DNA from: Escherichia phage T4
Sequence record: OL964735.1
Length of the DNA stretch: 64,000 bases
Direction: 5' to 3' (one strand)
The notes under the pieces were generated by a model. That model searched no databases and had not been told where the DNA came from. It worked only from the letters and a program-made list of their open reading frames with translations. Position 1 is the stretch's first letter. Every line of letters begins with the position of its first letter. This document shows, one piece after another, positions 32,952 through 34,193 of this stretch. The translations under genes and the position numbers were made by a program.

Positions 32952-32970
<19 letters not shown>

Positions 32971-33143
32971 TCAGTGATAAAGTTATTTAAATTTTGAGCA
33001 TATTTCTTTTCATCAAAAATCTTTTGCTGTCTGCGTAACCGCCATGGCATTTCAATGAACATACGCCATATTCCTGATAATACTGCTGCTGTAAAAATAT
33101 TAACAAGTATAGTTAAAAGAATCCAATCGCCTATTCTGTCCAT
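32952..33143 (-). CDS. small membrane protein, paralog family (C-terminal ECRKLK)
   Basis: 63 aa; one TM helix; C-terminus [10 protein letters not shown]. Confidence 0.45.
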
Positions 33144-33439
33144 TGGATTTTTATAAAAAAGTAAAATACGAATGATGATATAGGAAGACTAATGATATAC
33201 CACAGAAGAACCTTCTTATCTGTGAACCAATCAGCATTCGTTAACTTAGCGCGACCATTTTGAATACACACGAATTTATCATCTGTTACAGTAAATGGCT
33301 TAGCTGCTTGATATCCCATTCTAAACTCCCTAATTAATCGTTTCTTTGTATCTTCGGAACAACCATTCCAATCAACTCTATCAACTGGAATGCCATCATC
33401 CCCATCATCTAAATCATACCAGCGAGTTTTTAAAATCAT
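33131..33439 (-). CDS. hypothetical membrane-anchored protein
   Basis: 102 aa; C-terminal TM helix LLWYIISLPISSFVFYFFI. Confidence 0.4.
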   Translation of the reverse strand: MILKTRWYDLDDGDDGIPVDRVDWNGCSEDTKKRLIREFRMGYQAAKPFTVTDDKFVCIQNGRAKLTNADWFTDKKVLLWYIISLPISSFVFYFFIKIQWTE

Positions 33440-33798
33440 TTAATTTTCCTGCAATCAATCACAAACTCTTTCATTGATTCATTTTCAATATAAGACATGT
33501 AGCTATTATATTCTTTTAATTGTATTTTGTAATCCTTTTTTCTTTGCCAATTTATTTTAAAATTATCATAATGAAAATATAAAATGATACCAAAGAATGA
33601 AAACAATGAAATAATTTTAGTATAACAAAGCTCGCTCCAAACTTCTATTATATCTACTGTACCACTGATTTTTAAAATAAAACAGTCAATTAATAGTCCA
33701 ATAAGACTACCTGTAAGAGCTGCAGCCAACGCCACAGCAAAAATTAAAAATGACTCAGAAAACGAATATTTGACTTTATTTAGCTTTGGCTTTTGCAT
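33436..33798 (-). CDS. small membrane protein, paralog family (C-terminal DCRKIK)
   Basis: 120 aa; two TM helices; C-terminus KEFVIDCRKIK. Confidence 0.45.
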   Translation of the reverse strand: MQKPKLNKVKYSFSESFLIFAVALAAALTGSLIGLLIDCFILKISGTVDIIEVWSELCYTKIISLFSFFGIILYFHYDNFKINWQRKKDYKIQLKEYNSYMSYIENESMKEFVIDCRKIK

Positions 33799-34193
33799 CG
33801 TGATTCCTTAACAAATTTCATAATTTCATTAAATTCATACTCAGCAAGTTTAAGCTGGTGTTCCTTTTTAATCTTTTTGCACTGGGCTTTCCAATCACGT
33901 ACGCGTTTACGATAATGTCTTCCTTGATACCAGTATCCTATCCAATTTACGGGTACTAATAAAAATGGAACTACCAATGGAAGAGTTAGCATTAACATAA
34001 TTATTACGCCAGAATCAATATCAGTCATAACATCTAAAACACCTCCAATAATCAATAGAATTACAAATGATATAGCTATCACAGGACCTATTAATACATC
34101 AGTAGAAATTATCTGGCGCTTTAATTCATACTTCAAAGGTTTACTTGGAAGGTATAGTGATGGCTTTGACATATTCTCTACATTCCTTAACAA
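33780..34193 (-). CDS. small membrane protein, paralog family
   Basis: 137 aa; two TM helices; C-terminus MKFVKESRCKSQS. Confidence 0.45.
   Translation of the reverse strand: MLRNVENMSKPSLYLPSKPLKYELKRQIISTDVLIGPVIAISFVILLIIGGVLDVMTDIDSGVIIMLMLTLPLVVPFLLVPVNWIGYWYQGRHYRKRVRDWKAQCKKIKKEHQLKLAEYEFNEIMKFVKESRCKSQS

Follow-up and report, generated by a model that had tools for sequence, protein, structure and literature searches.

The T4 proteins Imm and Sp are small, early and dispensable inner-membrane proteins, and Imm has two transmembrane (TM) segments. The products of the T4 genes e.2, e.3 and e.4 are similar in being small, early and dispensable at the inner membrane; whereas Imm and Sp lack both the long conserved cytoplasmic helix and the ECRK-type tail described below, and no Pfam or PHROG cross-match relates them to the e.2-e.4 proteins. 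The class II holins, such as S21 of phage 21, share with the e.2-e.4 proteins a layout, predicted in the latter, of two TM segments, an N-in/C-in topology and a charged cytoplasmic tail, and also a gene near that of the endolysin. However, these holins are expressed late, whereas e.2-e.4 are early, match no holin family and are not needed for plaques; T4 already has the holin T. Partners of the PspC/PspB type are also small hairpins with a conserved and presumably partner-binding cytoplasmic C-terminal helix, but this is an analogy only: no Pfam match to PspC (PF04024) or PspA was found for e.3, e.4 or e.6. The conserved coiled-coil-like gene e.6 lies directly upstream of the gene string studied here. 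It had been read from the sequence as PspA-like; this was dropped, as neither Pfam nor the PDB sequences gave support, and the e.6 profile found no PspA or Vipp1 among the latter.

Coupled genes with ATGA overlaps are common in T4 (39 junctions). The stop codon overlaps the next start or comes after it, and the Shine-Dalgarno (SD) sequence lies within the upstream coding sequence. The e.x junctions are of the same kind. They differ from the other T4 ATGA junctions in that three or four boundaries in a row carry one particular junction sequence, which also encodes a conserved peptide.

Gene content of the string and the split e.2

The window, a 64,000-nt stretch of record OL964735.1, is 100% identical to T4 isolates. 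The sequence-only reading had described four small membrane-protein ORFs of a T-even phage downstream of nudE. All were present at the positions given, on the minus strand, and both the hydropathy profiles and the T4 identity agreed with that description. The ORFs correspond to the annotated genes e.2, e.3 and e.4, flanked by e.5 and nudE, and each gene of the string e.5 > e.4 > e.3 > e.2 > nudE overlaps the next (Table 1).

Table 1. Features of the e.5-nudE string in the window.
Feature	Position	Strand	Description
e.5	34141..34749	minus	202 aa, soluble, no TM; heads the overlapping string; motif block EKFVKECREYVKA
e.4	33780..34172	minus	130 aa from the likely start; predicted two-TM hairpin, long basic cytoplasmic helix, tail MKFVKESRCKSQS
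e.3	33436..33798	minus	120 aa; predicted two-TM N-in/C-in hairpin, tail KEFVIDCRKIK
e.2 as annotated in T4 (e.2a)	33131..33439	minus	102 aa; ends at TAG 33131-33133
e.2b	32952..33143	minus	63 aa; one TM and basic cytoplasmic helix; 3' part of ancestral e.2
Frameshift site	33148..33152	minus	A5 in T4 (TTTTTTATAAAAATCC), A6 in relatives with intact e.2
Junction J1	34177..34197	minus	AAATTTGTTAAGGAATGTAGA, e.5 codons K-F-V-K-E-C-R; upstream of e.4 ATG 34172
Junction J2	33803..33818	minus	AAATTTGTTAAGGAAT, e.4 codons K-F-V-K-E; SD AAGGAA for e.3 (ATG 33798)
Junction J3	33445..33465	minus	e.3 codons F-V-I-D-C-R-K; SD AGGAAA (33445-33450) for e.2
Junction J4	32961..32981	minus	e.2 codons F-I-T-E-C-R-K; SD AGGAAA (32961-32966) for nudE

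These genes have long been known, and the novelty here is a modest motif observation. The T4 records of e.2, e.3 and e.4 are identical in sequence and annotated as 'conserved hypothetical, predicted membrane protein'. The proteins are named Y06M, Y06N and Y06O in UniProt, and were first named msp7, msp6 and msp5 in GenBank L13089. They match PHROG 2203, 2330 and 2604 over their full length (E-values 1e-28 to 1e-71), and their homologues carry the precomputed Pfam families PF26896 (Phage_T4_Y06M) and PF26873 (Phage_T4_Y06O). Some e.3/e.4 homologues are labelled as rhodanese-type 'sulfurtransferase' at NCBI; this name was rejected, since the proteins are membrane hairpins of 120-130 aa without an NCBIfam or Pfam match to it. 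In the literature on e.2-e.4 function only genome-wide tables were found, with no published phenotype, and no earlier description was found of the shared C-terminal motif, its reach to e.5 and to orthologues in four genera, or its overlap with translation-initiation sites.

Orthologues for comparison were taken from GenBank phage records. IMG/VR scans with e.3 and with an alignment of e.4 returned four T4-like contigs only, and the relatives of e.5 among 1.84 billion representatives were confined to T-even-like coliphages. Profiles of e.5 and e.6 gave no match among PDB sequences.

Two of the four ORFs belong to one gene. PHROG 2203 covers both 33131-33439, which had been counted as a separate fourth ORF, and 32952-33143; in most relatives e.2 is a single ORF of 162 aa, and RB5 and SH7 are among the phages with an intact copy. 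In T4 the gene is broken into the 102-aa and 63-aa ORFs through a 1-nt deletion, the loss of one A of an A6 run. The e.2a product consists of a cytoplasmic N-domain of about 75 aa plus TM1 and then ends prematurely; the AlphaFold2 model of intact e.2 has a pLDDT of 51, with the N-domain unpredicted. The e.2b ORF carries no annotation in the T4 reference; the T4T record lists it as 'e.2b, probably split of e.2'. A -1 slip at A_AAA_A would give back the exact ancestral reading FYFFIKNPMDRIGDW, so that, as a secondary possibility, the broken e.2 might still be made as two pieces or through slippage at this site. The product of the annotated e.2 (e.2a) has been detected in T4 (PMC9697503). For e.4, the end proposed from the sequence stands at 33780, and the start is likely ATG 34172 (130 aa) rather than TTG 34193 (137 aa).

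A cleaner picture is thereby obtained, with three genes instead of four ORFs within a five-gene overlapping string; in T4, e.2 is either a frameshifted pseudogene or a split gene. Annotations in need of correction are that of the 63-aa ORF, the start codon given for nudE and the name 'sulfurtransferase'.

Membrane topology and the C-terminal motif

Hydropathy gave one TM segment each in the 63-aa and 102-aa ORFs and two each in e.3 (19-37, 57-75) and e.4 (31-49, 55-73), in agreement with the one or two helices per ORF expected from the earlier reading. The e.3, e.4 and intact e.2 products are predicted to be two-helix inner-membrane proteins with an N-in/C-in topology, because their termini are rich in K/R and their inter-helix loops are acidic or short. 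The AlphaFold2 model of e.3 (pLDDT 68.6) contains helices at 13-42 and 47-119; in this model TM2 is predicted to run on as a single long cytoplasmic helix to the tail. The dN/dS values were 0.06-0.14 in the C-terminal cytoplasmic helices and 0.39-0.69 in the TM cores. Conservation is found at the termini, which are predicted to lie in the cytoplasm, and the TM-loop-TM core changes at a much higher rate.

The motif [LMI]-[NEK]-x-F-[IV]-x-[ED]-C-[RK] closes e.3, e.2 and the soluble e.5, and is absent from the other T4 ORF ends. In the window, matches to the peptide pattern F[IVL]x[ED]C[RK] fall at these three ORF ends only, whereas six-frame shuffles gave a mean of 0.25; across the whole T4 genome it is again confined to the ends of e.3, e.2 and e.5. 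The DNA pattern TTTRTNNNNGANTGYAGR has 3 matches against 0.06 expected. Ends of the CRK(I/L)K type occur at 2 of the 39 T4 ATGA-overlap junctions, both in this string, and the other 37 are without the motif. The e.4 tail (FVKESRCKSQS) has only the FVKE part in common with the motif, and its Cys codon is formed by the overlap with the e.3 start codon (cgATGc); this tail is a degenerate FVKE-x-R version. Similar basic, Cys-containing tails had been proposed for three membrane ORFs. The similarity is beyond chance for e.3 and e.2 but does not extend past FVKE in e.4, and the third member is the soluble e.5.

The motif persists in four genera, and in Mosigvirus an additional two-TM protein, ORF133c, bears it in full. 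The e.5 orthologues (21-47% identity) have only 21 invariant columns, of which 8 belong to the motif, their most conserved block. Orthologues of e.2 at about 31-45% identity end in (S/E)FI(E/K)ECRK. When IMG/VR was searched for DNA that encodes FIxECRK*, the motif came up in T4-like contigs only, besides about 13 chance matches in tiny ORFs. The tail also resembles the capsid-targeting sequence of IPII/IPIII, which is regarded as a coincidence.

The codons of the tail contain AGGAAA or AAGGAA 5-10 nt ahead of each ATG. At J3 the e.2 ATG (33439) overlaps the e.3 stop as ATGA, and at J4 the nudE ATG (32955) overlaps the e.2 stop in the same way. The nucleotides that encode the peptide also provide the next gene with its Shine-Dalgarno sequence, spacer and start codon, and the tail is therefore of dual use. 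J1 and J2 have an exact 16-nt copy in common, and 30 nt of J3 and J4 align at 80% identity. The extension of the J3/J4 repeat into the downstream genes was marginal (p = 0.06), and a duplication including the 5' end of nudE is not claimed. The idea that the junctions form a conserved RNA structure was rejected (z-scores -0.5 to +0.9).

Possible common descent and repeated junction DNA

The genes e.4, e.3 and e.2 might be ancient tandem paralogues of one two-TM ancestor, whose cores diverged beyond recognition while the functional cytoplasmic ends stayed alike. This is a possible but somewhat doubtful history, and it is compatible with the docking role discussed below. The genes are adjacent and in the same orientation, and the proteins share one predicted layout (N-in, TM, short loop, TM, basic stretch, long helix, tail). 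Full-length cross-genus profiles of e.3 and e.4 aligned with Prob 90.7%, E 1e-6 and a score of 41.5, against 19.9 +/- 4.8 for column-shuffled profiles, exceeding 100 of 100 such controls. Moreover, the match of e.3 to the e.4 PHROG is full-length (E 0.007), and a chimera in UFV05 joins e.4 to e.2 in register, at P-V in TM1 of both. The cores change fast even between close orthologues, which would be consistent with such divergence. Cross-genus profiles were needed for this comparison; shallow profiles from Tequatrovirus alone gave no cross-family signal.

However, the signal comes from the termini, and the similar ends of e.3 and e.4 are the stretches that overlap the start regions of neighbouring genes. 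When ~15 residues were trimmed from the N-terminus and ~16 from the C-terminus, the hhalign score fell to 15.7, against 16.6 +/- 3.7 for shuffled profiles, and 28 of 60 controls reached it. The HMM scores were not raised over block-shuffled decoys either, and in VR26 e.2 sits 4 kb from e.3. The tail alone is no sign of common descent, because the soluble e.5, which is no paralogue, has the same tail. Since homology is undetectable outside the termini, tandem paralogy is unproven from these sequences. The earlier description of three tandem paralogues with a fourth ORF among them is not retained: two of the ORFs are fragments of one gene, and the trimmed cores score as the controls do. The opposite proposal, that the similarity is compositional only and the proteins unrelated, fails for the tail and effectively holds for the protein bodies.

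The tail might also have no function as a peptide and be a by-product of a repeated junction DNA module (SD, spacer and ATG, with translational coupling), spread by junction duplication or gene conversion and frozen by dual coding. The codons of the tail coincide exactly with the SD and spacer of the downstream gene; the J1/J2 and J3/J4 repeats are of the kind expected, the e.4 tail has no synonymous change (dS = 0), and the N-terminal likeness of e.3 and e.4 (MxKP) comes from the same overlapped DNA. In T2 and L006, e.2 was lost via a crossover within TGCAGGAAA. The distribution of codons points the other way. As judged from the orthologous sequences, the motif is under selection as a peptide, because five Arg codons and both Cys codons occur while it is kept in four genera. 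Over 28 distinct versions, Cys is encoded by TGC (13) or TGT (15), and Arg by AGG (9), AGA (6), CGT (9), CGC (2) or CGA (1). Between the two JS09 copies, in the tails of e.3 and of ORF133c (ENFIKECR in the latter), there are 4 synonymous differences and no non-synonymous one, and the e.3 and e.2 tails have a dN/dS of 0.17 with a normal dS. The SD shifts between the K-E and the R-K codons while the peptide is unchanged. The e.5 motif of VR26 (Gaprivervirus) carries no SD: AAGGAA is absent from it, and about 17 nt separate its end from the e.4 ATG. The absence of the motif from the other 37 T4 ATGA junctions and the ordinary structure of the junction RNAs also count against a mere by-product, which is judged rather unlikely. 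Should the tail prove to be one, the finding would be ordinary. In every case the next start codon is no more than about 45 nt from the motif, and part of the constraint, even in Dhakavirus and Gaprivervirus, may come from the translation-initiation region.

Possible roles of the tail at the inner membrane

The reading preferred here, held tentatively and with slightly less than even confidence, is that the tail may be a common cytoplasmic docking or assembly tip of e.5 and the membrane hairpins. The hydrophobic positions of the motif (L..FI..C) would have a heptad-like spacing, and the tail would form the far end of a helix of ~45 residues predicted to project from the membrane; these two features make a docking or assembly tip the most likely role. 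We infer it from conservation and helix geometry, with structure models that represent the monomer only. The tip might link e.5 with the membrane hairpins in a single membrane-associated complex, or connect them all to one shared cytoplasmic partner, and translational coupling through the overlapping starts could help to hold the partners in proportion. The e.4 protein may fall outside the same interaction set, because Cys is absent at its motif position. Such a role would probably be accessory, directed at the host or a competitor, at the inner membrane and early in infection.

A bolder version is improbable. The tip [LMI]-[NE]-x-F-[IV]-x-E-C-[RK] might be a dedicated tag that sends otherwise unrelated T-even early proteins (the soluble e.5, the hairpins e.3 and e.2, and ORF133c of Mosigvirus) to one partner or fate. 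Examples would be a common host target, a tail-to-tail complex via the invariant Cys, or a covalent Cys/Arg modification; the Nudix hydrolase NudE would be translated along with these proteins from the same string. If this were true, the phage wrote the tag into the very nucleotides that couple the translation of the partners.

The e.2-e.4 RNAs are early and the proteins have been detected, that of e.4 early (PMC9697503 supplements). In a CRISPRi-ART knock-down in a laboratory host the genes were scored 'Not Fit', with no fitness effect (PMC11879866 supplements). T4 itself carries a broken e.2, and therefore at least e.2 is dispensable. Natural variants include T2, which has lost e.2, the e.4::e.2 chimera of UFV05, and E33, from which e.4 is absent. 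Early expression, dispensability and natural gene loss are compatible with the roles in superinfection exclusion, lysis timing or defence interference that had been suggested from the sequence.

In the exclusion or defence case, the inner-membrane hairpins would act on incoming phage DNA or on a membrane-acting abortive-infection system. Small early inner-membrane proteins that are dispensable in the laboratory, with genes often lost, broken or recombined in nature and a variable part that is TM/periplasmic, would fit this role. However, the strongly conserved parts are cytoplasmic, and the core dN/dS below 1 indicates that selection is relaxed and not positive. Neither Imm and Sp nor any Pfam family showed similarity, the PADLOC defence and counter-defence profiles gave no match at E <= 1, and the genes are not named among the RexAB, RnlAB, CBASS and DarTG conditional hits in the HIDEN-SEQ text. 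This role is accordingly given little weight. Holin- or antiholin-like lysis-timing proteins left beside the endolysin gene e are very improbable: the predicted class-II-like topology (two TM, N-in/C-in and a charged C-terminus, from hydropathy and charge) and the position directly upstream of e in the same orientation would agree with them, but no Pfam holin family matched at E <= 1, the RNA and the e.4 protein are early and not late, knock-down had no effect, and T4 lysis uses the holin T and the antiholin RI, encoded elsewhere.

The one feature worth mutating is the nine-residue tip of the predicted cytoplasmic helix, common to e.5 and to four genera, which offers a handle for interaction and recoding work. 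The string also illustrates clearly how a single piece of DNA is under selection in two capacities, for the peptide that it encodes and as a ribosome-binding site.

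Gene identity and the broken e.2

The 2.4 kb around the flagged ORFs was matched at 100% identity by several phage T4 isolates, and e.2, e.3 and e.4 are already known T4 genes. The minus-strand order in the T4 reference annotation is e.8, e.7, e.6, e.5, e.4, e.3, e.2, nudE, e; in the original 1993 record L13089 the e-region genes were named msp1-msp8. The sequence-only reading, which described a tandem cluster of small membrane paralogs with similar tails, was right in part as an observation, and its interpretation was supported in part.

Coordinates and predicted transmembrane (TM) segments of the e genes
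Feature	Position	Strand	TM segments (residues)	Remark
e.5	34141-34749	minus	none
e.4	33780-34172	minus	31-49, 55-73	ATG start; the previously proposed 34193 is an upstream TTG
e.3	33436-33798	minus	19-37, 57-75
e.2 (e.2a, 102 aa)	33131-33439	minus
63-aa ORF (e.2b)	32952-33143	minus		unannotated in the T4 reference
intact e.2			78-96, 106-124

The 63-aa ORF was previously counted as a member of its own; however, it is not a separate gene but the broken-off end of e.2. Both pieces are spanned by PHROG 2203 (166 positions), the 102-aa ORF covering 1-103 and the 63-aa ORF 106-166, and the relatives have a single 162-aa ORF. In the T4T record the two are named e.2a and e.2b, with the remark 'probably split of e.2'. 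In the protein collection, the 162-aa e.2 occupies 42 clusters (about 580 member sequences), and the T4-type 102-aa form 2 clusters (30 members). At the break site (window 33144-33160, minus strand), T4 has TTTTTTATAAAAATCC whereas the intact-e.2 relatives L004 and L005 have TTTTTTATAAAAAATCC; therefore one A of an A6 run (33148-33152) was lost in T4. The 63-aa ORF lacks its own Shine-Dalgarno (SD) sequence; it starts at an ATG 10 nt before the e.2a stop, and its reading frame is still intact. If tRNA-Lys slipped by -1 on A_AAA_A, the exact ancestral FYFFIKNPMDRIGDW and protein would be restored. Intact e.2 in the relatives is under purifying selection (dN/dS 0.06-0.53 by region).

The start of nudE is ambiguous (window 32953-32970, minus strand). 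RefSeq uses ATG 32970 (151 aa, MQEIKMKT...); the alternative ATG at 32955 (146 aa, MKTLSAG...) is preceded by the SD AGGAAA (32961-32966) and overlaps the e.2 stop as ATGA. This shorter form is used in L13089, in metagenome gene calls, and in T2 and the IMG/VR T-even genome L006, where e.3 abuts nudE. In the T2 RefSeq record NC_054931 (L017 585-1556), a 323-aa 'nudE' CDS is annotated through gene e, probably as an artefact of annotation or sequencing.

Membrane architecture and the question of common descent

TM segments were called by Kyte-Doolittle hydropathy and charge counts, and intact e.2, e.3 and e.4 each have two predicted segments. The loops between the helices are short and acidic, and the termini are rich in K/R; therefore an N-in/C-in orientation is predicted. 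The AlphaFold2 model of e.3 (pLDDT 68.6) has helices at 13-42 and 47-119, so that TM2 is modelled as continuing in a single long helix to the tail; the e.2 model (pLDDT 51) was too poor for use. The conserved parts of these proteins are the predicted cytoplasmic termini.

With shallow profiles, no cross-similarity of e.2, e.3 and e.4 was found beyond the ends, and HMM scores were not raised against block-shuffled decoys. When cross-genus alignments of e.3 and e.4 were compared at full length, the score (41.5; Prob 90.7%, E 1e-6) stood above the column-shuffled controls (19.9 +/- 4.8; 0/100 reached it), but with ~15 residues removed from the start and ~16 from the end it fell to control level (15.7 vs 16.6 +/- 3.7), and the proposed descent as tandem paralogs is not demonstrable. 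The similarity of the e.2 C-terminal part to e.3 is also carried by the tail, and the soluble e.5 bears this tail as well, so paralogy does not follow from the tail by itself. Common descent of e.2, e.3 and e.4 is nevertheless plausible because of their shared architecture, gene adjacency, and fast core evolution even in close orthologs.

In some NCBI/GenBank records, e.3/e.4 homologs are called 'sulfurtransferase', and e.5 is called 'putative phosphoserine phosphatase'. The former name has no support from any NCBIfam or Pfam model and may have arisen from reading the CRK(G) tail as a rhodanese active-site loop. Searches of Pfam, NCBIfam and PADLOC matched only the self-families Phage_T4_Y06M/O/P.

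The tail and the start of the next gene

The similar tails described earlier are real and specific in e.3 and e.2b; e.4 (FVKESRCKSQS) has only FVKE-x-R in common with the motif, and the soluble e.5 had been missed. Within the window (six-frame shuffle mean 0.25) and across the whole T4 genome alike, F[IVL]x[ED]C[RK] is confined to the ends of the e.5, e.3 and e.2b ORFs, and the DNA pattern TTTRTNNNNGANTGYAGR gave 3 matches vs 0.06 expected. The Cys of the e.4 tail is the codon spanning the e.3 start (cgATGc).

The same DNA also serves the following gene. In the e.3 end (...TGC AGG AAA ATT AAA TGA), AGGAAA is the SD and the stop is overlapped by the e.2 ATG; the e.2 end (...TGC AGG AAA TTA AAA TGA) is arranged likewise before the nudE ATG at 32955. 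In e.4 (...AAG GAA TCA CGA TGC...), AAGGAA lies 5 nt ahead of the e.3 ATG, and e.5 has AAG GAA TGT AGA GAA T ahead of the e.4 ATG. The e.5/e.4 and e.4/e.3 junctions share an exact 16-mer, and e.3/e.2 and e.2/nudE are 80% identical over 30 nt. This upstream similarity is significant (p < 0.0005); its downstream extension is not (p = 0.35 and 0.06, respectively). The MQKP and MSKP N-termini of e.3 and e.4 are the same overlapped junction DNA in the other reading frame. CRK(I/L)K ends occur at only 2 of the 39 T4 ATGA-overlap junctions (e.3/e.2 and e.2/nudE), and no unusual structure was found in the junction RNAs.

Orthologous loci were compared in Mosigvirus (JS09, UGJNEcP1), Gaprivervirus (VR26), Dhakavirus (dhaeg, E33) and the unclassified fDHCT2. 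The e.3 tail reads NFIKECRK up to the stop codon in Mosigvirus; in Gaprivervirus and Dhakavirus it reads TFIKECKS. The e.2 orthologs (~31-45% identity) end in SFIEECRK or EFIKECRK. The e.5 orthologs (21-47% identity) have only 21 invariant columns, eight of which form F..ECREY.KA; in VR26 this motif lacks AAGGAA and ends about 17 nt before the next ATG. An extra 101-aa two-TM protein, JS09/RB69 ORF133c (L016 435-740), ends in ENFIKECRGK about 2.4 kb from e.3, and its eight codons in common with JS09 e.3 show 4 synonymous and 0 non-synonymous differences. Among 28 distinct versions of the motif, Cys is encoded by TGC (13) or TGT (15), and Arg by five codons (AGG 9, AGA 6, CGT 9, CGC 2, CGA 1). 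Position -3 is L, M or I without exception, which gives the hydrophobic residues a heptad-like L..FI..C spacing. The SD shifts between AAGGAA (K-E codons) and AGGAAA (R-K codons), and the peptide is constant. Within Tequatrovirus, the e.3 and e.2 tails show ordinary synonymous divergence (dS 0.27 and 0.17; dN/dS 0.17); the e.4 tail, in an 18-nt overlap with e.3, has dS = 0. It is concluded that the tail has a dual use, a selected peptide being written over a selected initiation site.

In the window, ipII (30883-31197) and ipIII (31313-31894) have the same 11-residue start, the known capsid-targeting sequence; its EFIAE core is superficially like the (E/N)F(I/V)xE of the tails, which was treated as coincidence. 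Between e.6 and e.5 (34772-34785; 'stem_loop' in L13089) there is a perfect GGGGCUUCGGCCCC hairpin with a UUCG tetraloop, which likely acts as a partial terminator or as an element for RNA stability at the head of the overlapping e.5-nudE string. The adjacent e.6 (34792-35385) is much more strongly conserved than the genes around it (dN/dS 0.03; 74-88% identity in four genera) and has a coiled-coil-like look; a likeness to PspA/IM30 seen by eye had no support from Pfam or PDB sequence searches.

Distribution, expression and proposed role

The e.6-e.5-e.4-e.3 block was found in Tequatro-, Mosig-, Gapriver- and Dhakavirus, and not elsewhere among the sequences searched. The e.2 gene is also old; its place in VR26 is 4 kb away from e.3, adjoining a 78-aa gene and nudE. 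T2-type phages lack e.2, and their e.3/nudE junction is a hybrid of e.3/e.2 and e.2/nudE with the crossover within TGCAGGAAA. At >=80% identity, about 444 phage records have e.2 and about 492 have e.4; by this difference, some 50 Tequatrovirus records appear to be without e.2. Other rearrangements include an in-frame e.4::e.2 chimera with e.3 deleted in vB_EcoM-UFV05 (L015 2601-2921), joined at CCTGT (P-V of TM1 in both genes); the loss of e.4 in Dhakavirus E33 (L021 1672-2554), where e.5 is directly followed by an e.3-like gene; and truncated e.3 and e.4 forms. In L006 (3043-3658), e.5 is present as two ORFs (145 and 92 aa), a further sign of frequent breakage in the string.

Mosig-, Gapriver- and Dhakavirus have, after e.3, a tandem run of three to five small genes for soluble proteins (L016 2361-3155; L019 3191-4459), all with a similar tail, mostly (G)WVSSSxxC at the stop. 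This array, which T4 lacks, seems to consist of true tandem paralogs with a Cys at the C-terminus.

Early expression and dispensability were established from published data. Time-resolved omics detected early RNA for all of e.2-e.6, and protein early for e.4 and e.5, in the middle phase for e.2, e.6 and nudE, and late for e.3 (PMC9697503 supplements). In CRISPRi-ART, e.2-e.5 were 'Not Fit', with prior essentiality 'UNKNOWN' (PMC11879866 supplements), and these genes are not named among the conditional hits of the HIDEN-SEQ preprint.

Since the same tip is common to a soluble protein and membrane hairpins of one overlapping string, the conserved end of the long cytoplasmic helix would most simply be a common docking or assembly element, and translational coupling would help hold the partners in proportion. 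A putative role in superinfection exclusion or defence interference is compatible with these data; a holin-like role is unlikely because of the expression timing and the lack of any holin family match. The biological role would be an accessory one at the inner membrane. The motif, with its dual use, adds a modest new observation that opens e.2-e.4 to experiment.
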